Virus record (IMG/VR): IMGVR_UViG_3300018477_000015
Span: 1-11,577 of that record
Origin: a virus
Taxonomy: Duplodnaviria > Heunggongvirae > Uroviricota > Caudoviricetes
DNA length: 11,577 nt
Reading direction: 5' to 3' (one strand)
Shown in pieces: positions 1-11,577 of this stretch (positions within the stretch are counted from its first letter, which is position 1; each line of letters starts with the position of its first letter). Under the pieces are notes generated by a model. That model saw only the letters and a list, made by a program, of their open reading frames with translations, was not told where the DNA came from and did not search any database. Both the position numbers and the translations under genes were made by a program.

Positions 1-87
1 GTGCTGGATTACATTGACGCGGTGACGGCAACAGATACCAGCACCGCGCCTGATATTATTTGGCCTGCTTTCCTTGAGACTGATTAA
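1..87 (+). CDS. tail fibre assembly protein (Tfa), C-terminal fragment; 5' end lies outside the window
   Basis: Frame 1 from base 1 reads VLDYIDAVTATDTSTAPDIIWPAFLETD followed by TAA at 85-87. The DTSTAPDI(E/I)WP motif is, as I remember it, the conserved C-terminus of lambda-type Tfa chaperones. No start codon in the window, so it is absent from the ORF track. Confidence 0.55.
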   Translation: MLDYIDAVTATDTSTAPDIIWPAFLETD

Positions 88-316
88 CCTCAATCAATAT
101 TGGTTCCCCTTTCTCATTAATTGTTAGCTCCATGCCCTGAGGAATTTCTGTCATAGTAAAAAACCAGTTGTCCTCCGGTAATTCAATAGCCCCGGTCACA
201 TCATGAAGACCGGGGATTACTTCAGTCAAAGTAACTGGATTAAACAGGCGCACAATAAACCCTCCAGGAAAAAGCATTTGATGATGGTCTGCCGTCGTAC
301 ATCTGGCAGCGGGCAT
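56..316 (-). CDS. hypothetical protein; possibly a short alternate tail-fibre assembly gene of the invertible segment
   Basis: 86-aa ORF convergent with the plus-strand Tfa fragment (the two stops overlap across 56-87), an arrangement like U/U' in Mu-type G segments. It lacks the conserved Tfa C-terminal motif and overlaps the upstream ORF by 77 nt, so coding status is uncertain. Confidence 0.3.
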   Translation of the reverse strand: MPAARCTTADHHQMLFPGGFIVRLFNPVTLTEVIPGLHDVTGAIELPEDNWFFTMTEIPQGMELTINEKGEPILIEVNQSQGKQAK

Positions 317-623
317 AAAAACCGGTATTTGTTACCTGATCATCCACGATCATTGAAACGTGAACATTATTAGGTGTGCTCTCGTAATCTGTTCTTATTC
401 TTTCCGCGATACTGATAAAACGTGAAAGTTTAGGCAGTGCAATTGGGTAAACGACTTTAGCCAGTCCATTATCATTAGACCCACCCGTTCCAAAGACTTC
501 TATTGCACCATCTGACCAGCGAATCCATGCACCATTGGCATTAGCTCCTCGCTGAATGATATATCTGGCTTCTCCCAAACCAACGTTTATGAAAATGCAG
601 AAATAACGATCAAATGGCATCAT
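240..623 (-). CDS. side tail fibre C-terminal receptor-binding segment, alternate unfused copy reading inward through the inversion crossover site
   Basis: The C-terminal portion resembles lambda Stf-type fibre tips by eye (YPIALP, VTNTGF, terminal WRVYCAPV versus lambda IRVMAIGY from memory). The ORF runs through the 26-bp crossover site at 570-595 and has no convincing RBS, as expected for a variable fibre segment expressed only after inversion fuses it to the constant part. Confidence 0.5.
   Translation of the reverse strand: MMPFDRYFCIFINVGLGEARYIIQRGANANGAWIRWSDGAIEVFGTGGSNDNGLAKVVYPIALPKLSRFISIAERIRTDYESTPNNVHVSMIVDDQVTNTGFYARCQMYDGRPSSNAFSWRVYCAPV
570..595. other. Hin/Gin/Pin-type inversion crossover site (26 bp, two imperfect inverted 12-bp half-sites around a central AA)
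   Basis: TTCTCCCAAACC-AA-CGTTTATGAAAA. It matches my recollection of hixL (TTCTTGAAAACCAAGGTTTTTGATAA) at about 20 of 26 positions and lies 55 bp upstream of the invertase start, the usual position. Confidence 0.6.
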
Positions 624-649
624 TCCTGCTTTTGTCAGGGAGATCTACC

Positions 650-1204
650 ATGCTTATTGGCTATGTACGTGTGTCAACAAATGACCAGAACACAGATCTA
701 CAACGTAATGCGCTGAACTGTGCAGGATGCGAGCTTATTTTTGAAGACAAGATAAGCGGTACAAAGTCCGAAAGGCCGGGACTGAAAAAACTGCTCAGGA
801 CATTATCGGCAGGTGACACGCTGGTGGTCTGGAAACTGGACCGGCTGGGGCGCAGTATGCGGCATCTTGTCGTGCTGGTGGAGGAGTTGCGCGAACGAGG
901 CATCAACTTTCGTAGTCTGACTGATTCAATTGATACCAGCACACCGATGGGGCGTTTTTTCTTTCATGTGATGGGGGCCCTGGCTGAAATGGAACGAGAA
1001 CTGATTGTTGAACGAACAAAAGCTGGACTGGAAGCTGCTCGCGCACAGGGACGAATTGGTGGACGTCGTCCCAAACTTACACCAGAACAATGGGCGCAGG
1101 CCGGGCGACTAATTGCATCAGGAGTTCCTCGCCAGAAGGTGGCGATCATTTATGATGTTGGCGTATCGACTTTGTATAAGAAGTTTCCGGTCGGAGATAA
1201 ATGA
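650..1204 (+). CDS. pin: serine recombinase, DNA invertase (Pin/Hin/Gin/Cin family)
   Basis: Translation from ATG 650 begins MLIGYVRVSTNDQNTDLQRNAL... with the catalytic-serine motif and C-terminal HTH (GRIGGRRPKLT...STLYKK), near-identical in pattern to e14 Pin as I recall it. AGGGAGA sits 6 nt upstream of ATG 650. The upstream ATG at 614 would add a non-conserved extension. Confidence 0.92.
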   Translation: MLIGYVRVSTNDQNTDLQRNALNCAGCELIFEDKISGTKSERPGLKKLLRTLSAGDTLVVWKLDRLGRSMRHLVVLVEELRERGINFRSLTDSIDTSTPMGRFFFHVMGALAEMERELIVERTKAGLEAARAQGRIGGRRPKLTPEQWAQAGRLIASGVPRQKVAIIYDVGVSTLYKKFPVGDK

Positions 1205-1284
1205 AACCGTAGCACGTCGTATGCAAGAACGTGCCACGGCTGGCTGATAAGCTTGTAAAAATATTGAACAGGGAGTGGAGCATT

Positions 1285-1932
1285 CTATGAAGCTAATTTG
1301 TTTAATTTCATTTGTAGTGACTTTACTTCTTGGTCGATAATGTCGAATCCCTTATTGACAGCATCTCTTAGCTCTGCATCAATATTTTTTATCCCTTGAG
1401 CATAATCTACCATTACATTTATTTTTGCATCATGTAATCTCTTATACATGGTTTTATCTTTGTTATTGTCTGCCATGCCAATAAGGATTTTTTCATAATC
1501 CTCAATGAGTTTGTTGTTTCCTTTAAATGATTGTATTAATGAGCGTGAATATGTGTATATGTTAATTATTGAGTCTCTAGCAGAATCATTTAGTTTTGCA
1601 ATGACATTCGCATTTTTCTCATAGAATGTGAAATTATCATCCCCTACAGGGAATGTGAGAATCAACATTTGTCCCGGTTTTATATTATCAATGTGTGTTT
1701 TCATCCTTTTATTATATAAATTGATTAGGGTGAAAACTTCTCCCTTAACTCCTTTTAATACTGAAAGTTGTAATTCAAGGGATTCTCTTTCTGTCTCTAC
1801 TTTAGACAGCTTAGCTTGTTGGGTAACTCCTTTTAGGGTAAACCATCCGCCAATAAGAGTACCAACTAGAGCTGTGAGGGAGGAGGATAACCATCCAGGT
1901 ATGCTATTTAAAAGATTACTAAATTCACTCAT
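1285..1932 (-). CDS. hypothetical membrane-anchored protein (single N-terminal TM helix, then coiled-coil and globular region); AT-rich accessory gene
   Basis: 215-aa ORF. Residues about 10-32 (IPGWLSSSLTALVGTLIGGWFTL) are hydrophobic, followed by a charged heptad-like stretch. Low GC compared with flanking phage genes. No family recognised. Confidence 0.6.
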   Translation of the reverse strand: MSEFSNLLNSIPGWLSSSLTALVGTLIGGWFTLKGVTQQAKLSKVETERESLELQLSVLKGVKGEVFTLINLYNKRMKTHIDNIKPGQMLILTFPVGDDNFTFYEKNANVIAKLNDSARDSIINIYTYSRSLIQSFKGNNKLIEDYEKILIGMADNNKDKTMYKRLHDAKINVMVDYAQGIKNIDAELRDAVNKGFDIIDQEVKSLQMKLNKLAS

Positions 1933-1990
1933 TATAAGTACTCGCTAATATTGAACGATATATATATCAAATTATTATAAAACTCGTCAG

Positions 1991-2269
1991 CTACTGGAGA
2001 AGGCTACCTGAACTTCGATCTATTCCTGCATCCATATAGTTGATGGTCTTCTGGAGCTCTTCGATTAGGGCAACAGCTTTTGCTCGAGAAATGCATATTA
2101 GTTGATCCGGAAATTCTTGTAAGGGCCAGTTTGGTATACAGGCCATGTTATCAGTGAAGGATGCAGACAAGTAAACTTCATTGGTAACCAGAGAATAGCT
2201 TACCTCAAAATTGGTGAGTTCCGGCAAACTGCTAACGTTTGACTCTTTTCTGCGCATAATATTATCCAT
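1991..2269 (-). CDS. hypothetical small protein; start uncertain (ATG at 2269 giving about 92 aa, or upstream ATG at 2419 giving 142 aa)
   Basis: Open frame in the AT-rich island. The N-terminal 50 residues of the long form are Cys/Trp-rich and contain the C9T6 tract, so the shorter form is favoured. No clear SD for either start. Confidence 0.35.
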   Translation of the reverse strand: MDNIMRRKESNVSSLPELTNFEVSYSLVTNEVYLSASFTDNMACIPNWPLQEFPDQLICISRAKAVALIEELQKTINYMDAGIDRSSGSLLQ

Positions 2270-2346
2270 GACTGTAATTATGTACAGGTGATGGTCTTCA
2301 ATTTCGAAGAGGGAGTCAAGGGGGAGTCTCAAATGAACCGTTATAG

Positions 2347-2361
2347 AAAAAAGGGGGGGGG
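2347..2361. repeat. homopolymeric tract A6G9 (C9T6 on the minus strand)
   Basis: Direct reading: aaaaaa at 2347-2352, ggggggggg at 2353-2361. Confidence 0.9.
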
Positions 2362-2409
2362 ATCTTTGTGTTGCTGAACTTATGCAAAATTTTTTTGCAC
2401 CATAAATCC

Positions 2410-2670
2410 AACAACACATTCAATAACACATTGCTGTATCACTATGAAAATAAATGTGTTTTTATTTGATTTCACACATATCACAATTAATACAGCGTTT
2501 AGTAATTAGTAAAGACATTTCAATGAATTACCGTTAAATCATTTTAAAATCAGTAAGTTGTATCGAGTTTGTATGCTTTACTGTCATTAACTTACTGTAT
2601 GTTGATCCAGTGTATTTAACCTTGATAAACTCAGTCCAGCAACACAAAACCGCAACACATTGCATTTTGT
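2410..2670. promoter_or_regulatory. AT-rich integrase-upstream region with repeated short motifs; candidate attP arm-site or int regulatory region
   Basis: AACACATT at 2413-2420, 2425-2432 and 2654-2661, with an inverted copy at 2453-2460. A 9-bp perfect inverted repeat CAGTAAGTT/AACTTACTG at 2551-2559 and 2589-2597. Repeated TTGTAT and TTACTGT motifs. Confidence 0.3.
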
Positions 2671-2732
2671 CCCGTAGAAAAGACTTGTATGTGTGTGCTT
2701 GTTTTCTGCGCCTACGCAGATAAGGATTGAGA

Positions 2733-4130
2733 ATGCCGCGCACTGTAACACATAATCCGGATAGCCCCAATAATGACGATGTTTTAGCCGCATCTGAAAA
2801 ATGGGACGCCTGTAAACCCCCCTATACCAGCGCACACATGAAAATCTGTGTTGCTGCCGCCAAAATCATCCTCGCTGCTTCCGGCGTGGCTCGCCGTTCC
2901 AAATACGAAAAAGAGAACTATCTCCGTATCGATTTCAGCAAAGCCGGTAAGGTTACATTTTACGCCGAGTTTCCAAAAAAGATGGGCCTCAAAGGTAAAA
3001 AGCTCGGCGAGTGGCCGGAGCTCGCTATTCAGCTGGCGCGCGAAAAAGCGCTAGGTATGGCTGACGGTGGCCTGCGTGCAGAGTCCGTACATGCAGCGCT
3101 GGAAATGTACCGGGATGACCTCAAAGCCAAAGTCGCCCGGCAGAAGCTGAGCCCGGACAGTTTCACAACCTACGGGGTGCGTATCGACCGGATTAAAGCA
3201 ACGTTCGGCGAGCGCGAGGTGTTCAGCGACGTAACATACAATCGGCTGGTGGAAGTGCTGGACGAGTGGATCGCTACTCGCTCGAACAATAACGCCCTGG
3301 AGTTGTTTGCCGAGCTCCGTCGGTTCTGGAAGTTCTGCGCACCTACTCTTTGCAACGGCCGCAATGTTGCCGCCAGTCTGCCAGATGATTATGTTTCCTC
3401 CCGCGTACAGAAACCTACCCCCACACGGCTTTTTACCGATATTGAATCAATCGCCCGACTCTGGCTCAATGTTGCTGCCTGCACCTCTGTACACCAGAAG
3501 AATGCTGTTCGCTTCATGATCATCACTGGTGTTCGTCCGATTAATGTCCATAACCTGCGCTGGGACTACGTTCACGAGGAGGCTGGTGAAATTGTTTATC
3601 CGGAAGGGGTTATCGGCATGCGAGGGGCTATGAAAACACAAAAGGCTTTCCGCCTGCCGATAACCCCTGAGATCCGGCGGATTATCGACGAGCAGAAAGC
3701 CTGGCGTGATTCAGTTCCTGAGTGCAACAGGGATTATGTATTTTTGCAGCCACGTGATCCAATGCAGCCATTTTCAAAACGATCACTAGATAAGCTGGTG
3801 AAAACATACAGCCCGGACGGGGCTGTAAAAGGAATAAAACATGATGGGACTGTTAAAGGGAAAGACGGTGCATTTAATACGATGTGCCGTAAATTCCTTA
3901 AGAGCAATGTTATTGCCTTGATGAAGGAAAGAGGCTATTCCCGCTCAGACCGAAGGGAAATCAGCCTCCTTTGCCTTCACCACTCCAGCAAGTCAGATGA
4001 CCCGATGGCAGAACATTACGACTTTTCTGATGAGATTTTACAGGAAGAGATTGCGTTGAAGCGCGAAGCTTTCGAGGCTCACGAGCGGAGCATACTTGCG
4101 CAGGTGGCATTGCTACGGCGGCGAGGTTAA
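2733..4130 (+). CDS. int: tyrosine-type site-specific integrase (P4-like, with N-terminal arm-binding-type domain)
   Basis: 465 aa from ATG 2733, with AAGGA 6 nt upstream; the track's 2727 start is a TTG. The N-terminus (YLRIDFSKAGKVTFYAEF...LGEWPELAIQLAREKA) fits the P4-int arm-binding pattern. The catalytic-domain landmarks are TGVRPINV (Arg), HDGTVKG and CLHHSS...AEHY (His/Tyr region). Confidence 0.85.
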   Translation: MPRTVTHNPDSPNNDDVLAASEKWDACKPPYTSAHMKICVAAAKIILAASGVARRSKYEKENYLRIDFSKAGKVTFYAEFPKKMGLKGKKLGEWPELAIQLAREKALGMADGGLRAESVHAALEMYRDDLKAKVARQKLSPDSFTTYGVRIDRIKATFGEREVFSDVTYNRLVEVLDEWIATRSNNNALELFAELRRFWKFCAPTLCNGRNVAASLPDDYVSSRVQKPTPTRLFTDIESIARLWLNVAACTSVHQKNAVRFMIITGVRPINVHNLRWDYVHEEAGEIVYPEGVIGMRGAMKTQKAFRLPITPEIRRIIDEQKAWRDSVPECNRDYVFLQPRDPMQPFSKRSLDKLVKTYSPDGAVKGIKHDGTVKGKDGAFNTMCRKFLKSNVIALMKERGYSRSDRREISLLCLHHSSKSDDPMAEHYDFSDEILQEEIALKREAFEAHERSILAQVALLRRRG

Positions 4131-4327
4131 TACTGGCTGCGACATTTTTGAATAAAAGCGTCGATATTTCGGCGCTCATAACGAACTACTTTTGCACTGA
4201 AACGAATTGGTGCCAGGATAGCCCGATGACGATGCTTAATATTCCACTCACATAGCGTTTTCTGTGTAATACCTAACTTTTGGCATACTTCATCCGGGGT
4301 GAGTAAATCGTCGGGTTTCTCGCTCAT
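4127..4327 (-). CDS. AlpA/excisionase-family small HTH DNA-binding protein (candidate recombination directionality factor)
   Basis: 66 aa. LLTPDEVCQKLGITQKTLCEWNIK...ILAPIRFSAKVVRYERRNIDAFI fits the AlpA/Xis winged-helix pattern. Its ATG overlaps the helicase stop (ATGA at 4324-4327) and its stop overlaps the int stop convergently. Confidence 0.65.
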   Translation of the reverse strand: MSEKPDDLLTPDEVCQKLGITQKTLCEWNIKHRHRAILAPIRFSAKVVRYERRNIDAFIQKCRSQY

Positions 4328-5718
4328 GCTATACCTCTCTTTTTCATGGCATCGAGCAGGATGTCCTGCACTGTTCGTTTTGAGTTGCGCCGCTCCATCA
4401 CCATTTCATCCATAGTGTCGGCAGCAATAATGTGGTGAATAAATACCGGACGATTGTGTCCGGCCTGTATCTGCCTGGTGGGGCCGATACGTTCAATAAT
4501 TTGCTGATATTGCTCCAGGTCCCACCAGTGTGAGAAAAATACCAGTATATTTCCGCCGTCCTGCATGTTCAGGCCGTGGCCCGCGCTGGCTGGGTGTGCA
4601 AAGAGAACAGGAATCTTTCCGGAATTCCAGTCGCGCAGTGTCTGTGGATCCTGGTCGAGGTGACGACCGCGAGGGAATGCTTTAAGCAAGCGTTCAAGAT
4701 CGTGTTTCCAGTGATAAGCAACCAGCACAGGTGCGCCAGCTGCTTCGGTCAGTATGCTGTCCAGCGCCTGTAGTTTGGTGTCATGCAGTTCTGACCAACT
4801 TCCGGTGTCATCTGTGTATACTGCGCCGCTGGCGATTTGCAGACACTTCAGTGTCTTTGCCGCGGCGTTCGGTGCTTCGATGCCTTCGCCATTCAGCTCG
4901 AGGAACATTTCCTTTTCCATTTCACGATACTGCTGACGGGCCTTCGGCGGCATATCCACGCGGATTACGTTATGGATGGGGTCTTTGATATCGAACCAGT
5001 CGGCCGCATCCAGCGAGAGGGTTACATCGGCTAACGCTCGCTGTATTTCACCCTGTGAGTGAGCAAAAGGCTCCAGTTTGGTCCAGCTCTGCCCCGGAAA
5101 CTGTATCGAGTTGAACCAGCGTGAGGTAAACGCGCCGTAAGTGCGCCCGAGACGTTGCCCCTGGTCCACAAACCACGATTGTCCCCACAAATCTACCAGG
5201 CCGTTCGGTGCTGGCGTACCGGTGAGATTTATCCAGCGCCGGACATACTTATGCGCCACTTTGCCCAGCGCCGCCGCGCGCTTACCACCACCGCGCAGCC
5301 GGAAGGATTTTAGCCGGGTGCTTTCATCTGGAATGACAGTACCGAACGGCCATCGTTCTCCCAATTCTTCAACCAGCCAGACAAGGTTATCGTAGTTGAT
5401 GGTGAACACGCTTGCGTTGCTGTTCGTCAGCGCCATAGAGCGCGCTTTGGCATTACCAATAATTGGCTGCACCTCGATATTGCGCAAATGTCCCCACTTC
5501 AGTGCTTCATCCGGCCATGTGCTGGCAGCCACGCGCAGCGGCGCGAGGACCAGTGCGGGGCATGTTTCTGCCCCTGCCATAAAGAGATCTTCCAGCGCAG
5601 TGAGCGTTGCCACGGTTTTACCCATTCCCATCCCCGCCCAGATGTTGCCGCGCAGGGTTTCGGTTTCGTGGTTGATAATGAGATCTTGGTAGGGGCGAGG
5701 TATATATTTTGGGGGCAT
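4324..5718 (-). CDS. SNF2-family ATP-dependent helicase (phage replication or recombination module)
   Basis: 464 aa with RPYQ, Walker A AGMGMGKT, DExx box IPDESTRL, motif III LTGTPAPN and a C-terminal GLNMQ...ERIGPTRQIQAG block resembling SNF2 motifs V/VI. AGGAG sits 9 nt upstream of ATG 5718. Confidence 0.85.
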   Translation of the reverse strand: MPPKYIPRPYQDLIINHETETLRGNIWAGMGMGKTVATLTALEDLFMAGAETCPALVLAPLRVAASTWPDEALKWGHLRNIEVQPIIGNAKARSMALTNSNASVFTINYDNLVWLVEELGERWPFGTVIPDESTRLKSFRLRGGGKRAAALGKVAHKYVRRWINLTGTPAPNGLVDLWGQSWFVDQGQRLGRTYGAFTSRWFNSIQFPGQSWTKLEPFAHSQGEIQRALADVTLSLDAADWFDIKDPIHNVIRVDMPPKARQQYREMEKEMFLELNGEGIEAPNAAAKTLKCLQIASGAVYTDDTGSWSELHDTKLQALDSILTEAAGAPVLVAYHWKHDLERLLKAFPRGRHLDQDPQTLRDWNSGKIPVLFAHPASAGHGLNMQDGGNILVFFSHWWDLEQYQQIIERIGPTRQIQAGHNRPVFIHHIIAADTMDEMVMERRNSKRTVQDILLDAMKKRGIA

Positions 5719-5732
5719 ATAATATGGCTCCT

Positions 5733-5768
5733 AAACAACAAAAGGCCAATTTAGGCCTTTTGTTGTTT
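5733..5768. other. perfect 15-bp inverted repeat with 6-nt loop (possible attenuator, weak terminator or processing hairpin)
   Basis: AAACAACAAAAGGCC-AATTTA-GGCCTTTTGTTGTTT. It lies between the stop of the 305-aa gene (5781) and the helicase RBS, and is U-rich on either strand. Confidence 0.5.
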
Positions 5769-5780
5769 TAAAAATGTTAT

Positions 5781-6698
5781 TTATAATAGTGCTGTTACTA
5801 TTGCATCTTTAAAAATATTTTCTTCTTCATTTATTAAAGGTGATGACAGATGAATAATTACTTCTTTTCCTGTCAATACTATTTGCTCGACTTGAAATCC
5901 TGCGTTGTGTAGTCTTTGGCGTAACTTTTCTAGTGCTGATTTTGATATACTAAATCCTTCACTCCTTATAGTATAACTGGCAACTCCATTTTTAATAATA
6001 TCTACAGAGTTGTCAATTTCCTGCTGCGAGTAATTTTTCGGTGAGTCGAAAAATCTGGATTTTGTCGTTGCTGTTGCCCTAAGAGATATCAATAATGATT
6101 TGATATCTTTAATCTCAGATGCCAGATACTCAGTTTCTGATACTTCTTTCTGGTCTAGTTGTGCAACTTTGAAAGTGCCAAAATGTTTGAGGAATGTTGT
6201 GTATTCAGGATCAGTTACTGACTTTAAATATGTTTCTTTTATCTTGCTCGCAAGTCTTTCTTTGAATAAATTGATTGATTGGTATCTTAAATCCGAAGGG
6301 TACTCTAAATGTTCAATTGATGAAATGTCAAAGCTATAAGGAGTGCGCTCGTCCTTAATAATTACGGTCGGTTTGTCAAATGCGAGACGCATTCCTAATT
6401 CAAACATTACATTAGCGTTTCGAGCACTTATATCGCAAACAACTATGGGGTTTTCATAAAGATTTTGAACAATTCGTTTTTGTATTACTGCAACATCATC
6501 ATCTGAACTTACCAAATTTGCCTTGAATCCGGCATCATTTGATGCTTCACAAATAATGTCATGAACATTTCTCCAATGTCCAGTGGGATAACCTTCTATG
6601 TCCGCAATTGGCATAATAATGCCGCATATATGAGGTGGCATATTTTTGTTGTCTTTTACATCATCTTGGTTTATTTCTTTCGTTTGTTGCTTAGCCAT
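5781..6698 (-). CDS. hypothetical protein with N-terminal TIR-like / nucleoside 2-deoxyribosyltransferase-like (Rossmannoid) domain and uncharacterised C-terminal domain; AT-rich insertion
   Basis: 305 aa. N-terminal region has ICGIIMPIA, then DDDVAVIQKRIVQNLYENPIVVCDISARNANVMFELGMRLAFDKPTVIIKDE and EYPSDLRY. The FE(L)G acidic motif after a buried strand is typical of TIR-like (PF10137-type) and NDT-like folds as I recall them. GC content is clearly lower than in the flanking helicase and VRR-NUC genes. Confidence 0.5.
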   Translation of the reverse strand: MAKQQTKEINQDDVKDNKNMPPHICGIIMPIADIEGYPTGHWRNVHDIICEASNDAGFKANLVSSDDDVAVIQKRIVQNLYENPIVVCDISARNANVMFELGMRLAFDKPTVIIKDERTPYSFDISSIEHLEYPSDLRYQSINLFKERLASKIKETYLKSVTDPEYTTFLKHFGTFKVAQLDQKEVSETEYLASEIKDIKSLLISLRATATTKSRFFDSPKNYSQQEIDNSVDIIKNGVASYTIRSEGFSISKSALEKLRQRLHNAGFQVEQIVLTGKEVIIHLSSPLINEEENIFKDAIVTALL

Positions 6699-6713
6699 AG
6701 CTTACACAGACTC

Positions 6714-6998
6714 CTATTGTAATTTTTTGCCTAATATACATGAAAGCTCCTTACTATCCAGTACTACCACGGTAAAGCCCAGTTTTCGCAGACGTTCATG
6801 CTCGCGCAACTGATCAGGTCGTGGTGGTTTGCCTGGTGCTTTGCATTCGACAAAGACGATGCGACCGCCGGGTAGCAGAACAATGCGATCTGGTACCGAG
6901 CGGAGACCGGGAGATACGAACTTAAAAGCAACCCCGCCAGCCTTTTTTACTTCAGCGACGAGGTGCTTTTCGATTAGGTTTTCACGTTCATAGGCCAT
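6714..6998 (-). CDS. VRR-NUC domain nuclease (PD-(D/E)xK family)
   Basis: 94 aa. GLRSVPDRIVLLPGGRIVFVECKAPGKPPRPDQ contains the D...E-x-K signature in the size and arrangement typical of VRR-NUC, a usual partner of phage SNF2 helicases. Confidence 0.8.
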   Translation of the reverse strand: MAYERENLIEKHLVAEVKKAGGVAFKFVSPGLRSVPDRIVLLPGGRIVFVECKAPGKPPRPDQLREHERLRKLGFTVVVLDSKELSCILGKKLQ

Positions 6999-7192
6999 TA
7001 GCTTTCGCCTTCCTGCTTTTTGCGTTTCTTCATGCAGATAGCGCAGTTCTCAGGATGGTCATGCCATTCGTCAATCCTGATACCTGTGAACATCCATTTT
7101 CCGCATAGTGATATGGCTTCCCCCGAATTAAAGAAATGTGCTTTTTTCGACAGGGCGGGGAACCCCCAACCTTTATTATCGATATTAGACAT
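6998..7192 (-). CDS. small putative zinc-binding protein (64 aa), translationally coupled to the VRR-NUC gene
   Basis: Strong SD (AAGGAGG, 6 nt before ATG 7192). Its stop overlaps the VRR-NUC start (TAATG at 6996-7000). Contains a C-x13-H-x-H-x4-C-x2-C motif (SLCGKW...EWHDHPENCAIC). Confidence 0.55.
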   Translation of the reverse strand: MSNIDNKGWGFPALSKKAHFFNSGEAISLCGKWMFTGIRIDEWHDHPENCAICMKKRKKQEGES

Positions 7193-7370
7193 CGTCCACC
7201 TCCTTACGCTTTTCGCGCATGTTCTGCATCAGACAAAAATCAAACCGACGTTCGCTTTGGCCCAGACCTGCATCGCCCGGTCGTACCCGCTGGACTGTTC
7301 AAGGCGCAAAGCCTCCCGCGCAGTCCGGTAATAAAGCGGACTGTCCCGGTATTTAAATGACATAGGGTTT

Positions 7371-7403
7371 TTATTCCCAAATAAAAAACCCCGCAATGCA
7401 GGG
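7371..7403 (-). terminator. rho-independent terminator downstream of the 253-aa gene (minus-strand sense)
   Basis: Minus-strand RNA forms CCCUGC-AUU-GCGGGG (6-bp stem with one G-U pair) followed by UUUUUUAUUU. It lies about 24 nt after the stop at 7428. Confidence 0.5.
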
Positions 7404-7427
7404 TTGTAATCAACAATAAGGGGGTAA

Positions 7428-8189
7428 TTACGAGGAAGCGTTAGCTATTTGAGCTTGTGTAAATTCGAAACCAGAATTTTGTAACCGTTGCACTAGACGA
7501 GGAACTGTTTCACGTACATGGTCGTTGAAATTCAGATACAAAATCCCGTTAGCATCAGAAGGCTGTTCTAGGTGCTGTTTCTGAAGGATTGCTACATTGC
7601 TGCGCCCTAAGGACGAAAGAAGCATACCCATCTCGAGTACAACGTTCTGTCTTGCGCGGGGTTGGATTTCTGCTTCACCGGCGCGCTTTGAGTATCCCAT
7701 ATCATCAGGTGTCAAAAGAACAATCCCGAAACGGGTAGCAGTTTGTCCTTGCCCAATTTCACGTTCAAGCTCTTCAATAATGGTGAGTCCAGTCCCTCCC
7801 GTATTCTGCAAAATGAAATGGTCTGGTAATCCAAGTTTATGAAGGATTAGCTCAAGTTGTTCCTTTGCAGTATGGTCATGGCCGTGAACAATGAATATCT
7901 TTTTGGGAAGCTCAGATGGCTGTTCTACGGCTAGTGGTGTTGCCGTGGGGGGCGTTCCTAAATGGGACATTATTGCAGTTTCAACATTGGGACGTTCTTG
8001 AGGGTTACCTTGAAACTGAATGGTCCGGGTGGTGTAAAGGTTAACAATTACGCCATTCGTTAAACGATAGCAGTCATAAGTCTCACGCTGTTCGTGGGAA
8101 AAATTGGTGAACCCACACTCCCTCAAAAAGTCAGGAAAAGATTCTCTCGGGTATGGATAGGTGATCGGCATTTCAGTTAGTTCCTGCAT
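7428..8189 (-). CDS. TIR-like domain protein (C-terminal TIR-like/NDT-like Rossmannoid domain, uncharacterised N-terminal domain of about 95 aa)
   Basis: 253 aa. C-terminal half has KIFIVHGHD, then FGIVLLTPDDMG...PRARQNVVLEMGMLLSSLGRSNVAILQK and QPSDANGILYLNF, the same motif order as the 305-aa protein and matching my recollection of the PF10137-type TIR-like family. AGGA about 10 nt upstream of ATG 8189. Followed by its own terminator. Confidence 0.55.
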   Translation of the reverse strand: MQELTEMPITYPYPRESFPDFLRECGFTNFSHEQRETYDCYRLTNGVIVNLYTTRTIQFQGNPQERPNVETAIMSHLGTPPTATPLAVEQPSELPKKIFIVHGHDHTAKEQLELILHKLGLPDHFILQNTGGTGLTIIEELEREIGQGQTATRFGIVLLTPDDMGYSKRAGEAEIQPRARQNVVLEMGMLLSSLGRSNVAILQKQHLEQPSDANGILYLNFNDHVRETVPRLVQRLQNSGFEFTQAQIANASS

Positions 8190-8253
8190 AAGTATTGTTC
8201 CTTTAATTTACTCGAATTCAGCATGTCGCCATAGCTCGATAAGGTGAGTTATA

Positions 8254-10350
8254 TCAATCTTTTTTGTAGTGGTACGCCTCAAAGCCGCCAGCGTTCAGCG
8301 GAATATCGGGTGCCCATTCGGGGTTAGTGGAGAGAAGCGCGGAAAGCGCTTTATCGTTGAAATCTTCTGTGTCTGGTGCTTCGGTGATCACCTCGTCGTG
8401 TACCGTTAGCACAATGCTGTAACCGGCACCCTCGATCAGCGGCATGTTTCTGGCCAGAACGTCGCGGGCGGCCGCCTGGGTGACGTTCTCCACCAGCTTT
8501 CCGCCGTAGGTTTTGAGTCGTTGCCATTTACGCGAATAAGAGTTAACACCCATGTAGGTGATATTCCCTTGTTCGATAACCGGAGACGGGTAGCATACAG
8601 CGCGTCCGGATGGTAGCTGTATGCGCAGCCACGCGCCATCACGTCGGATTTTAAGATAGCCGCAATACAATGTTTTTTGCGGTATGGCGATTGCTGTGCG
8701 GACAGTGCGCTCCAGCTCGTACCAGAAATCGCAGGTCGCCGGGTGCGCCCTGCGCCACAGGCGCTTGAGCGAGTCACATGCGATGAATACACGCTCGGAA
8801 AGGCCAAAGGTCGACTTACGTTTAACCGATTCGTCGTACCAGCTTTTCGCCTCGCGGATAACATCGCGGGGAATGTTTGGCAGTGCGGCGTTCGCCAGCT
8901 CGTCGAGATCGAGACCGTAAACCAGAGCAAAAGTGATGAAAGCCGATACACCACCTCCATAACCCAGACCGAGTTCCATGACTTTACCGATCTGACGCAT
9001 GTGTTTATCAACATCATCTGGTGCAATATCGAAAGCTTTTGCATACGCCAGTTTATATAAGTCCGGACCCGTTCCAGCGTCATACTCTCTGAATGCATTC
9101 AGTTTCCATTCTTCTCCCGCCAGCCATGCCAGCATACGGCCTTCAATGTTTGACAAGTCACTTACCACCAGTTTTTTGCCTGTTGGCGCGATAATGCAGC
9201 CACGTAACGCTGAACTGGTTAGTTCCATGATATTGTCAAACAGCAGGTCTGCACATCCGGCTTTCAGTGCTTCGATGCCTTCGTCTATTTGTTCCTGTTT
9301 TAGTGAAGGGCGGGGAAGGTTCTGGGGCTGGAATAGCCGTCCGGCCCAACGACCGGTACGTGACGCCCCGCAGAACTGTAGCGTACCGCGTAAGCGCCCG
9401 TCGTGGCTTACGCCTTTCATCAGTGCCTTGTATTTACTGGTGCTGGTAGTACTGGCTTGCAGGCGGATAGCCAGCAGTTCTTTCACGGCAGATGATAAAT
9501 CGGGGTCGGCCATACGACGTTCCAGGGTACTGCGTTGCATGTCTGGTAGCTCCACACCGTAGGATTCAACGATGTGCTTAATCAACGCGTCCCGTTGTGT
9601 GGCTGCCTGCACTTCGCCATCAGTCATTTCCTGTGTACGCTTTGCCAGGCGCTTTTGCTCCTGGTCTACCGCTTCGATCGCAGCGCGCGCGAGTTGCATG
9701 TCCATGCAGACGCCCCGGTCGTTGATCTGCTGATCACGATGCCAGAGCGCCAGCTCTGTCCCCTGATAATTCCACTTCGGCAGACGTTTATAGACTTCGC
9801 GCATTGCTTCGATATCCAGTCCGGCGTAAGCAACAAAGCGCCGCCATTCTTCCGGATGGGTTTTACTGGTGGCCCGACGCAGTTTGCTGTTTTTCGGATG
9901 TGGCTTACAGAACAGCTGGATCAGCGCTTTACCTTCTTTGTCCTTCGCTTTGTCTTGCGGGACGCCTAGTACTTCGCAGAGTTCCCCCAGAGACCCCGGG
10001 AGACCGTGCGCCAGCGCCTGCACCATCGTGTCGCGCCAACGTTCGACTGGCGGTGCCAGTCGCGGCATTGCATAACGCAGAACGGTGCGGTCGAAGTGAG
10101 AGTTATGGAAATAAAGCAGGGTTTCAGGGTCTGCGATTGCTTCGTATAAGCCGTGTGGAATACCACCACCGGCAGTGATATCCCACACGTTTACTGGCCC
10201 GTCGTTGATAGCCCATGCGAAAAGCATCACTTCAACGCCTTCGGCATACGCATGGGTACCGTTCGTAATAGGGATTTCGCAATAGGTTTCCAGGTCGCCC
10301 CAGAGAATACTTTGATGTTGTTTATTTGAGGGGACTATATTATTTTTCAT
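8254..10350 (-). CDS. family A DNA polymerase with N-terminal 3'-5' exonuclease domain (phage-type PolA)
   Basis: 698 aa. Exo motif LWGDLETY, polymerase motif [21 protein letters not shown], motif [17 protein letters not shown], motif C LTVHDEV. Confidence 0.9.
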
Positions 10351-10384
10351 ATGGGCAAACTAGCTAATAAAGTTGAGGAAAAAA

Positions 10385-10588
10385 ATGTCTGAATCTAAGT
10401 TCAAACCTGGAGACCGCGTACAACATCTTTCTGGTGGGCCTGTTCTTGTGGTTGTTAGCACAGGATATATTCCTGCAACAGCTTTTAATGGCGACTTCAT
10501 TCGCGTAACTTGTGAATTTTGGGATGAATCTAAAAAAGCTTTCGTAAAACAGGATTTTGTTGAAACTTCTCTTGAAGATTACGAATAA
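10385..10588 (+). CDS. DUF2158 (YodC-like) small protein
   Basis: About 67 aa from ATG 10385, with GAGGA 5 nt upstream; the track's 10373 start is a TTG. KPGDRVQHLSGGPVLVV...CEFWDESKKAFVKQDFVETSL fits the GD.V.L.SGGP...C.WFD...K..F pattern of the DUF2158 family. It lies opposite in orientation to the surrounding replication genes. Confidence 0.65.
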   Translation: MSESKFKPGDRVQHLSGGPVLVVVSTGYIPATAFNGDFIRVTCEFWDESKKAFVKQDFVETSLEDYE

Positions 10589-10604
10589 CTCATAACACAA
10601 TCCT

Positions 10605-10628
10605 CAAAGCGCCCCTAAGGGCGCTTTG
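10605..10628. terminator. bidirectional hairpin terminator between convergent genes
   Basis: Perfect 10-bp stem CAAAGCGCCC / GGGCGCTTTG with CTAA loop, followed by GCGTTT on the plus strand. It sits 17 nt after the DUF2158 stop and 4 nt after the DUF2815 stop. Confidence 0.55.
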
Positions 10629-10632
10629 GCGT

Positions 10633-11181
10633 TTAAATCAGTGCTTCAGCATCAGCACCTTCGCTGATATCGTCGAAATCGTCAGCGCTTGCCACTCCGC
10701 CGCCAGCGAATGCATCGCCGTCTCGCAGGAACTGGACTCCGCCGAGTGAGGCATTAATGCGTTTACCGAAATTATTGTCCTGTGCCCAGATATCGATAAC
10801 GGCGTTTACATAGCACCCTGCATAGGGACGTCCATCAGCCTGAATTAGTGGCGAACGATCGCGATCAAGAACAGCTGGGCGCGCTTTGTTAGCAGCATTC
10901 AGGAAGAAATTACCGGGGAAGCCTTCATACTCTGCTTTTTCATCACCATCATGCAGGCACAGATTGAGTTTTTTCTCCAGTTGGTTATAAATGGGCTCCC
11001 ACTTCTCTCCCCATTTTTCCTTCGCTACCTGCTTCATAGCTTTACGGATTTCTTCCAGTTGTGGGTGTTTGGGAGACATTAAAAATACTGCGGAGAAACG
11101 CGGATCGCCTTCGCCGTTTACAGTTTTAGCTTCAAACAGAGACGGGAAGGCCAGACGAACATTGTTCAGCTTCAGTTTCAT
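10633..11181 (-). CDS. DUF2815-family phage protein (ssDNA-binding-like), with acidic C-terminal tail
   Basis: 182 aa beginning MKLKLNNVRLAF, the N-terminal signature I associate with DUF2815 proteins found next to phage family A polymerases. AAGGAAA SD 8 nt upstream. C-terminus is DDFDDISEGADAEALI. Confidence 0.65.
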   Translation of the reverse strand: MKLKLNNVRLAFPSLFEAKTVNGEGDPRFSAVFLMSPKHPQLEEIRKAMKQVAKEKWGEKWEPIYNQLEKKLNLCLHDGDEKAEYEGFPGNFFLNAANKARPAVLDRDRSPLIQADGRPYAGCYVNAVIDIWAQDNNFGKRINASLGGVQFLRDGDAFAGGGVASADDFDDISEGADAEALI

Positions 11182-11196
11182 GGGTATTTCCTTAAA

Positions 11197-11577
11197 TCAG
11201 ATGAGGTCTGCGGTTAGCGTATCGTCGGATACGTCGTCGAAATCATTTACAGGGTTGATATTGAGTGCGGGGCGTGGGTCTGACTCGGGAACGACGGTTG
11301 GTTTACCATCAGCTCGTGTTATCAGTGCCTCGACTTTTGACCAACGGCGCGGACTGGCCTTTTTGATAAGTTTTTCGGCTTTTGTGGGACTAATAAGTTT
11401 AAAGTCGAATACTTCTTCAGTTTTGTACCTGAACTGGTCCTTCAGAAGTGCGCGAGCTGCCTCTTCATCACTCCAGGCCCGGTTACCTTGTTTTCCTGTT
11501 ACCAGTTTAAACCCCGGTACCGGATGTCCGGCATTGAGTTCATTGTGAACCCGGTCCCGTACTGCCTTTAGCCAGGA
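11197..11577 (-). CDS. phage replication-module protein, C-terminal 126-aa fragment (5' end outside window); possibly the DUF2800-type nuclease that usually precedes DUF2815
   Basis: Minus-strand frame is open from the window edge to TGA at 11197-11199 and ends ...NDFDDVSDDTLTADLI. The stop lies 15 nt upstream of the DUF2815 start. It is not in the ORF track because there is no Met in the window. The family assignment is a guess from gene order. Confidence 0.45.
   Translation of the reverse strand, partial: SWLKAVRDRVHNELNAGHPVPGFKLVTGKQGNRAWSDEEAARALLKDQFRYKTEEVFDFKLISPTKAEKLIKKASPRRWSKVEALITRADGKPTVVPESDPRPALNINPVNDFDDVSDDTLTADLI

Follow-up and report, generated by a model that had tools for sequence, protein, structure and literature searches.

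How does the tail-fibre and DNA invertase (pin) end of a phage come to lie next to its integrase gene (int)? The question is raised by the window analyzed here, by which we mean the whole stretch of 11,577 nucleotides that forms positions 1 to 11,577 of the IMG/VR virus record IMGVR_UViG_3300018477_000015. As the original prediction had pointed out, the two ends are about 1.5 kb apart in this window, with the invertase at 650-1204, the integrase at 2733-4130 and an AT-rich stretch between them; the gap (1205-2732) measures 1528 bp and has a GC content of 35.7%, compared with 47% for the whole window. We identified no tRNA gene in the window. Its features are as follows.

1-87, plus strand: 3' end of tfa, inside the Pin-invertible segment (TAA stop at 85-87)
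56-316, minus strand: small ORF at the alternative tfa' position of the invertible segment (ORF list)
240-595, minus strand: Sv'-like cassette for an alternative tail-fibre C-terminus, read from the crossover site (PHROG, Pfam)
570-595: Pin/Gin-type 26-bp crossover site, pin-proximal copy, TTCTCCCAAACCAACGTTTATGAAAA; its partner lies outside the window
650-1204, plus strand: Pin-type serine DNA invertase, 184 aa (ORF 614-1204, likely ATG at 650)
1285-1932, minus strand: 215-aa accessory ORF of the AT-rich island, no family match
1991-2257, minus strand: 88-aa accessory ORF (phrog_17793, 7.8e-45)
2342-2361: A5G9 homopolymer tract in the outer attP left arm, variable in length among relatives
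2365-2432: left (P) arm of attP, containing three arm-type repeats, CARYAACACAWW
2471-2488: att common core and crossover region, 18 bp, TTCACACATATCACAATT
2489-2518, minus strand: diverged yfhL codons 1-10 carried by the phage, with the start codon at 2516-2518
2637-2648 and 2650-2661, plus strand: attP right (P') arm repeats (motif scan)
2733-4130, plus strand: divergent tyrosine integrase (ORF 2727-4130, likely ATG at 2733)
4127-4327, minus strand: 66-aa HTH_17 protein (Pfam HTH_17, 26.0 bits for a cut-off of 27)
4324-11577, minus strand: early/replication module, the int-proximal prophage end (Pfam, PHROG, NCBIfam)

Our results indicate that the invertase end adjoins the integrase end because both prophage ends meet at attP. 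The window most likely represents a single temperate myovirus of ~41 kb, with its two prophage ends fused at attP. Judging from the sequence, this permutation would very probably be that of the excised, circular, concatemeric or virion-assembly form of a yfhH/yfhL prophage.

We found the att region in 160 of the 5426 complete E. coli genomes (~3%), at 278 places (attL plus attR, median of two per genome), all of them chromosomal. The matches in complete genomes form two classes: one covers positions 1-2508 of the window and then continues into yfhH, the other covers 2471-4400 and is preceded by yfhL. In E. coli lysogens, yfhH and yfhL are separated by one prophage of ~41-42 kb whose opposite ends carry pin and int, and the single prophages of EH2252 and A16 (42 kb) are examples of this arrangement. 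The premise of the original prediction, that the two ends lie far apart in an integrated prophage, was thus verified in lysogens of the same lineage. The pin and int ends enclose a complete, uninterrupted phage genome that includes genes for head, tail, lysis, regulation and replication. The closest correspondence was found in the draft genome GCA_015620475.1, in which both ends are located ~40.8 kb apart on contig JACXJV010000001.1 and match the window at 99.956% (2471-11577) and 99.59% identity (569-2508).

These maps bear on two other explanations of the adjacency. Numerous unrelated prophages, P2-like and e14-like ones among them, share Pin invertase and tail-fibre cassettes, so that an e14-like remnant with Pin and tail-fibre genes could in principle lie beside a separate integrase-bearing island. 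In the lysogens, however, the pin and int ends bound one contiguous complete phage genome. The original prediction had held that two separate elements would show themselves by host genes or an att duplication between 1205 and 2732, and neither is present in this gap. Two side-by-side elements are refuted by the lysogen maps, by the four-way att alignment described below and by the colinearity with GCA_015620475.1, and we give this explanation practically no credence. The window could instead be the internal junction of a tandem double lysogen, with two copies of one phage, or two related phages, arranged head to tail at yfhL. We consider this unlikely, since no place in any of the 160 complete E. 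coli lysogen genomes spans the junction, and the window is matched on both sides, at 99.6-99.96%, by a prophage present as a single copy in GCA_015620475.1. The two sides of the window do have different best complete-genome matches, which an origin from two phages would lead one to expect, but a mosaic single phage would give the same pattern; the four-way alignment implies that the internal junction of a tandem lysogen would be indistinguishable in sequence from attP.

We located attP where the phage or circular order (tail genes, accessory region, attP, int) had predicted it, and the comparison with attL, attR and attB proved the site. In a four-way alignment of the window attP, attL, attR and K-12 attB, the only block identical across all four is the 18-bp core at 2471-2488, which occurs once in the window and whose host counterpart is codons 11-16 of yfhL (minus strand). 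The pin-side (left) arm of the window equals the phage arm of attR and the int-side (right) arm equals that of attL, and the K-12 flanks are found at the left of attL and at the right of attR; attL and attR are thus reciprocal hybrids of attP arms and attB flanks. An assembler might have produced the same join by fusing the attR-side and attL-side contigs of an ordinary lysogen through their shared core, given that attL and attR have 18 identical bases in common and partial identity over ~48 bases. Such a chimera is nonetheless highly improbable: 18 bp is less than the usual assembly k-mers, the window has the phage version to the left and right of the core and lacks any host-specific base, and the junction is present in two independent records. 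These are a 35.7-kb IMG/VR contig, at whose start the same junction occurs independently, and the circular Enterobacter record pE76_003. A 35-mer of the junction had one match in IMG/VR and none in JGI metagenome contigs, and the exact junction 60-mer had no match in IMG/VR or in GTDB representative genomes. The two accessory proteins of the window were not found on the 35.7-kb contig, where the genes are absent or differ in sequence.

On both sides of the core we identified arm-type repeats (CARYAACACAWW). The left arm has one inverted copy (2365-2376) and two direct copies (2409-2420 and 2421-2432), and the right arm has the two copies listed above. A scan for this motif gave eight matches in the window when 0.99 were expected, a count reached in none of 200 shuffles, and seven of the eight fall within 2365-2856, clustered round the core. 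The repeats are kept in the Enterobacter relative (~88% identity) despite its diverged flanks, and those of the right arm (2637-2661) are invariant in the IMG/VR and Enterobacter relatives. The Enterobacter relative retains the arms and has a different core (GGCGCACATGTCGCAATT), a change that would fit adaptation to the yfhL of another host. The homopolymer tract at 2342-2361 varies among relatives (A5G9, A3G7, A2G7, A2G6), and one IMG/VR contig (L008) begins right after it. The start of int lies 245 bp from the core, on its right-hand side. Scans of 1150-2800 for promoters and terminators gave background levels only. The locus therefore has the components of a lambda-type attP, namely a common core, reciprocal attL and attR, an adjoining tyrosine recombinase gene and arm-type repeats on both sides.

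The integrase itself is divergent. It matches Pfam Phage_integrase (PF00589) with 30.4 bits for a cut-off of 27.1, with profile positions 14-117 of 172 aligned, and phrog_1 at 1.5e-26; it has no NCBIfam match, and a search of PDB sequences returned none that was useful. Its description as a P4-type integrase in the original prediction did not hold. Identity to P4 Int is 22% over 196 aa, in the catalytic region only (pairwise E 0.005), and the P4-type arm-binding domain was rejected (Arm-DNA-bind_3/DUF4102, 13.6 bits, E 0.075, for a cut-off of 27). P4-like elements typically integrate into the 3' end of a tRNA gene; such targeting was also rejected, the target here being the 5' end of the protein gene yfhL. 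The 66-aa HTH_17 protein adjoins int in all relatives and is probably the excisionase or directionality factor, as its sequence and position suggest. We propose that Int would bind the arm repeats and the core, with strand exchange within the 18-bp identity inside yfhL codons 11-16, and that the adjoining HTH_17 protein would probably direct excision, restoring the junction seen in the window.

The region beyond the HTH_17 gene encodes an SNF2 helicase, a VRR-NUC protein, a TIR protein, a family-A DNA polymerase (PolA), DUF2815 (an Enc34-type ssDNA-binding protein) and the start of DUF2800, and it is colinear with the integrated prophage of GCA_015620475.1 (99.956%). The combination of the integrase with PolA/DUF2815 and a Pin cassette had been regarded as an unusual mosaic, but it belongs to a widespread lineage whose prophage has the Pin cassette at the end away from int. 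Public assemblies have 6624 blocks listing the exact integrase; among the matches listed, the protein always has the same neighbours (HTH-SNF2-...-PolA-DUF2815-DUF2800), and it adjoins yfhL in all ten of the long contigs listed. Exact look-ups of the integrase and of the 215-aa protein gave integrated copies only, again among the matches listed, in which the longest contigs come first. Of the original interpretation, the phage-form order thus stands; the P4-type integrase and the unusual mosaic do not, and the tandem and phage-plasmid alternatives that it had allowed are disfavoured or unsupported.

The target gene is not left truncated, because the phage supplies its own diverged codons 1-10 together with upstream sequence. 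The phage-borne copy at 2489-2518 matches K-12 yfhL at 20 of 30 nt (38 of 48 nt including the core), and its sole protein changes are A2S and K8R. Lysogens accordingly encode a full-length 86-aa YfhL beginning MSLLITKR. This 48-nt copy is the sole yfhL-like sequence in 1205-2732; it is part of attP rather than flanking host DNA. Integration would leave a complete yfhL with a 5' end of phage origin: sequence brought by the phage would take the place of the native promoter, the 5' untranslated region and the first ten codons.

At the pin end, the window holds the pin-proximal part of an invertible segment. Positions 1-87 are colinear with the annotated tfaE of EH2252 (L002 5482-6087). The ORF at 56-316 has no Pfam match and an equivalent at 56-253 is annotated as hypothetical in EH2252; its position suggests that it may be an alternative tfa'. 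The cassette at 240-595 matches phrog_2557 (virion structural, 3.4e-21) and phrog_2712 (tail fiber, 8.8e-6), with a weak Gp53-like_C match (0.0088) under the Pfam cut-off. The crossover site at 570-595, which we take to resemble the gix/hix consensus, has an inverted partner 1.6-1.9 kb away within the tail-fibre gene in two lysogens (L002, six mismatches; L076, five mismatches), and numerous BLAST matches break at 568/569. The invertase matches Pfam Resolvase (1.8e-51), a C-terminal HTH_7 (3.8e-14) and phrog_125 (DNA invertase, 2e-97), and its length of 184 aa agrees with the RefSeq annotation of pinE in lysogens. A small serine recombinase and inverted 26-bp sites bounding alternative tail-fibre cassettes identify this as a Pin/Gin/Hin switch. 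As in the Pin/Gin/Cin/Hin switches (the P segment of e14, the G segment of Mu, the C segment of P1), the serine invertase lies beside the invertible segment, which here spans 1.6-1.9 kb and carries alternative tail-fibre C-termini and assembly genes between 26-bp inverted sites; we noted no difference of importance from these systems.

The AT-rich island between pin and attP is an accessory gene pair in the usual cargo position beside attP. The 215-aa ORF had no match in Pfam, NCBIfam, PHROG or PADLOC; a cassette spanning 1092-2287 recurs at ~89% identity in other IMG/VR phage contigs, and the ORF and island are absent between pin and attP of the Enterobacter relative. The 88-aa ORF has a homologue in Salmonella phage SEN34, in the same slot between the tail-fibre chaperone and int. 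A defence role for the two ORFs was considered and rejected, PADLOC, Pfam and NCBIfam giving no support.

The Enterobacter relative also raises the possibility of an episomal phage-plasmid or plasmid cointegrate, that is, an extrachromosomal phage with an intact attP. It resides in the circular 76.9-kb pE76_003 of Enterobacter sp. E76 with pin, attP and int contiguous, and its tail-fibre region has an IS26-bounded insert with sopA/parB and a replication protein. The par genes of pE76_003 are, however, confined to this inserted segment, genes for partition or plasmid replication are missing from the window, and no plasmid record covers at least 80% of it. In E. coli the phage-plasmid alternative of the original prediction finds no support, with none of the 278 att-region places on a plasmid, and the intact int/attP together with thousands of integrated copies points to an integrative lifestyle. 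We therefore consider this explanation very unlikely.

The arrangement of a phage joined at attP is well known. In lambda, the map near attP reads J - stf/tfa - b region - attP - int - xis. As in the window phage, tail-fibre genes and a dispensable accessory region lie on one side of attP and int on the other, and there are a core, arm-type repeats and a tyrosine integrase; in both, the tail and int ends are adjacent in the phage form and opposite in the prophage because attP lies between them. Unlike lambda, the window phage has a very divergent integrase, a target inside a protein-coding gene (lambda attB is intergenic), a putative excisionase whose gene is oriented convergently to int and comes first in the early operon, a myovirus virion and a PolA/DUF2815/DUF2800/SNF2 replication module. 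Phage 21 and e14 integrate within the host icd gene and carry a diverged replacement of its 3' end, keeping the gene intact, and in e14 a Pin invertase with tail-fibre cassettes lies at the far end from int. The window phage likewise enters a conserved protein gene of its host and brings a diverged version of one end of that gene, but it replaces the 5' part of yfhL (the upstream region, the start codon and codons 1-10) rather than the 3' end of icd; and e14 is a defective remnant, whereas the window lineage has a complete phage genome of 41-42 kb. Salmonella phage SEN34 (Brunovirus, KT630649), sequenced from induced particles (PMC5261728), has the same order of baseplate, tail fibre, chaperone, accessory region and int, with early genes past int on the opposite strand. 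It differs in its lambda-like O/P replication and Red recombination module and in its integrase (393 aa), and has no Pin cassette in the region shown; nucleotide similarity to the window is limited to ~230 bp at 79.5%. A urinary coliphage whose best match is vB_EcoM-683R1 has been placed nearest SEN34 (PMC12945033), and the vB_EcoM-683R1 record matches the pin end of the window.

No phage record in the INPHARED copy searched spans the junction. The nearest phage records there are cut-outs of prophages. Three of them, vB_EcoM-606R2, 611R5 and 689R2, had looked like virion genomes but were rejected as such, since they include host genes, and they are therefore uninformative on virion order; we found no paper naming them. 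Strain Z226-5, which seemed to cover 73% of the query, was likewise rejected as a carrier of the junction: its prophage is decayed, has IS5/IS1 insertions and keeps the prophage order.

The pin-attP-int adjacency is thus the normal phage-form gene order of a common E. coli temperate phage, of a known kind, and no part of the attP and prophage-end picture should surprise phage biologists. The exact attP (core 2471-2488, arms ~2365-2661) defines the true ends of a common E. coli prophage lineage, which is mainly of value for annotation: some "complete phage genome" records of the lineage are mis-delimited, including host tadA, pgpC and yfhH and missing int. The joined-ends form in the window suggests that the lineage is excision-competent. 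Prophage insertion into yfhL has been recorded before (PMC3603311, PMC12029490), and the finding that this phage rebuilds the gene rather than inactivating it would qualify an earlier listing of yfhL as prophage-"disrupted", if this lineage was meant there. More tentatively, the swap of the 5' end might rewire expression of yfhL, a conserved ferredoxin gene, as a form of lysogenic conversion, or the window might come from an actively excising or replicating population.

ORF listing and family scans gave the following gene layout for the window, in which no tRNA genes were found:

1-87 (+): tail-fibre assembly gene, end portion, at the left edge
56-316 and 240-595 (-): alternative tail-fibre cassettes, at the left edge
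650-1204: Pin-type serine invertase (Pfam Resolvase, 1.8e-51, and HTH_7; PHROG DNA invertase, 2e-97)
1285-1932 and 1991-2257 (-): two unannotatable ORFs, the second being phrog_17793
2733-4130 (+): tyrosine integrase (PF00589, 30.4 bits with a cut-off of 27.1; phrog_1, 1.5e-26)
4127-4327: HTH_17 protein of 66 aa (family scan)
Early module (-): SNF2 helicase, VRR-NUC nuclease, TIR protein, Enc34-type (DUF2815) ssDNA-binding protein and family-A DNA polymerase

The gap between invertase and integrase (1205-2732) is 1528 bp long, and its GC content is 35.7%, against 47% across the window. The original prediction that the two ends lie close together, with an AT-rich stretch between them, is therefore correct.

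Aligning window 1-4400 to 5,426 complete E. coli genomes with megablast, we obtained two non-overlapping classes of matches. Those of the first class cover 1-2508 and in every case run on into host yfhH; those of the second cover 2471-4400 and in every case have host yfhL before them. Both ranges together are covered at no place in these genomes. In K-12 the two host genes adjoin, with 55 bp between them. We then compared window 2380-2640 with attL (strain WP3-W18-ESBL-08), attR (strain EH2252) and the empty K-12 site. The left arm of the window equals that of attR and its right arm that of attL, and the remaining two arms of attL and attR equal the K-12 flanks. The core TTCACACATATCACAATT (2471-2488), present as a single copy in the window, is common to all four sequences. 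The reciprocal arms and the shared core identify the junction at which the pin and int sides meet as the predicted phage attachment site, attP.

The motif CARYAACACAWW occurs eight times in the window (0.99 expected, and fewer than eight in each of 200 shuffles), and seven of these copies fall inside 2365-2856. The left arm has copies at 2365-2376 (inverted), 2409-2420 and 2421-2432, and the right arm at 2637-2648 and 2650-2661. The motifs are conserved amid diverged left-arm surroundings in a relative with about 88% identity, found in Enterobacter, and we infer that they are putative arm-type integrase-binding sites. The core of this relative differs, being GGCGCACATGTCGCAATT, which would fit a match to the yfhL of another host. 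Between the 88-aa ORF and the arm repeats lies an A5G9 homopolymer tract (2342-2361), whose length varies in relatives (A5G9, A3G7, A2G7, A2G6) and at which one IMG/VR contig breaks exactly; the ORF upstream of it has 88 aa in the window, compared to 159 aa annotated in strain A16. The tract could be slippage-prone, or merely difficult to sequence.

In EH2252 and A16, a single complete prophage occupies the space between yfhH and yfhL. The A16 prophage (about 42 kb) has the order yfhH / two accessory ORFs, pinE, tail fibre and baseplate, tail, head, terminase, lysis, Q, VapE primase, cI/cro, DUF2800, DUF2815, PolA, SNF2, HTH, int / yfhL. The draft genome GCA_015620475.1 has both prophage ends on the same contig, with about 40.8 kb between them, and matches window 2471-11577 at 99.956% (4 mismatches in 9,107 bases, gap-free) and window 569-2508 at 99.59%. 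With both ends at near identity on one contig, the window is the joined-ends permutation of essentially this prophage.

Strain Z226-5 (NZ_CP159644.1) carries at yfhL a decayed copy from which most of the phage is deleted, in the order int, IS5, tail-fibre assembly gene, serine acetyltransferase gene, pin pseudogene, two accessory ORFs and IS1. The phage records nearest to the window, vB_EcoM-606R2 (ON470579.1) and its sisters ON470588 and ON470582, are titled "complete genome", yet they begin in host tadA, pgpC and yfhH and end at the SNF2 helicase, without an integrase; they are thus mis-delimited prophage cut-outs, not virion maps.

We also searched complete E. coli genomes with a 300-bp stretch that has the junction at its middle; it matched 278 places in 160 genomes (median two each, for attL and attR). 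None of the 278 spans the junction, nor did we find an INPHARED phage record that does. The junction is present in a 35.7-kb IMG/VR contig, at its very start: the contig sets in just past the poly-G run (2353-2361) and stays colinear with the window up to 5700 (97.4%). The map order is identical in Salmonella phage SEN34, sequenced from induced particles (PMC5261728), which at the corresponding position has a gene homologous to the 88-aa ORF. On these results as a whole, the phage or circular gene order put forward originally is favoured, and the window very probably represents the excised, circular or virion-assembly form. The same prediction had allowed for tandem elements or a phage-plasmid. 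The internal junction of tandem lysogen copies would be identical in sequence to attP, but the lack of any junction-spanning place in the 160 genomes makes this origin improbable. A phage-plasmid lifestyle in E. coli has no support, as all 278 places are chromosomal. Pin, attP and int are also contiguous in a related phage genome within the circular 76.9-kb pE76_003 of Enterobacter sp. E76 (CP042502.1), whose tail-fibre region is interrupted by an IS26-bounded plasmid segment of about 33 kb with sopA/parB, a replication protein and several IS elements; it looks like a phage-plasmid cointegrate.

The integrase had been described as P4-type, and the element as an unusual mosaic. The P4 assignment is not established: identity to P4 Int is 22% over 196 aa (pairwise E 0.005), Arm-DNA-bind_3 scores 13.6 bits with a cut-off of 27, and the target is a protein gene rather than a tRNA. 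No sequence relative was found in NCBIfam or PDB. The protein is unusually divergent, Pfam aligning only profile positions 14-117 of 172, and in the pairwise alignment with P4 Int the HGFR box stands opposite GAFN. Nor was the mosaic claim borne out: public assemblies contain this exact integrase in 6,624 indexed blocks, and in the ten places shown it always has HTH, SNF2, PolA, DUF2815 and DUF2800 as neighbours, separated by cargo slots that vary.

The AT-rich island is itself cargo. Its cassette (1092-2287) was found again in other phage contigs at about 89% identity, and the Enterobacter relative has no such cassette separating pin from attP; its ORFs have no match in Pfam, NCBIfam or PADLOC. 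Further variable slots were observed elsewhere. Within the replication module, 7428-8189 (-) encodes a 253-aa TIR-domain protein (Pfam CAP12-PCTIR_TIR, 2.9e-31; PADLOC candidate defence family PDC-S35, 1.3e-108). Lysogens differ in what the PolA/VRR-NUC slot holds, which in others is DUF4406, Arc, pRha or DUF7446 genes; a cytosine methyltransferase lies just past VRR-NUC in strain A16. The slot between the SNF2 helicase and VRR-NUC, another site of variable cargo, holds an AT-rich (34% GC) 305-aa ORF at 5781-6698 (-) that matches phrog_3634 and, weakly, a PADLOC TIR effector (1.1e-6); its place is taken in other lysogens by genes such as TfpB-like or pRha ones. The polymerase ORF (8254-10350, -) encodes 698 aa, compared with 687 aa in most relatives, and the PolA-DUF2815 spacer contains a 71-aa ORF (10373-10588, +), where other lysogens have a gene of 199-229 aa or an Nmad5 gene. 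At the left edge, most matches skip 68-568, the content of the invertible segment varies between otherwise near-identical lysogens, and alternative cassettes are annotated at differing lengths, which suggests that cassettes are exchanged in the tail-fibre switch controlled by Pin.

The core corresponds, on the minus strand, to yfhL codons 11-16, and the 30 bases to its right (2489-2518; start codon at 2516-2518) hold the phage's own, diverged copy of codons 1-10. This copy and the core match K-12 at 38 of 48 bases, with two amino-acid changes (A2S and K8R). In the phage form the yfhL stub stops after 18 codons. The lysogen YfhL is full-length (86 aa), starting MSLLITKR instead of MALLITKK. Given the phage copy of the first codons and the intact lysogen protein, integration exchanges the 5' end of yfhL, together with the sequence upstream, and does not destroy the gene. 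That prophages insert at yfhL has been recorded before: the gene is listed among "disrupted" genes (PMC3603311) and is the site of Stx2b prophages (PMC12029490). The region is the ordinary attP-int region, in phage-form order, of a widespread yfhL-integrating temperate myovirus, and is not novel in kind; it is useful for prophage delimitation and as a record that yfhL is not disrupted but rebuilt.
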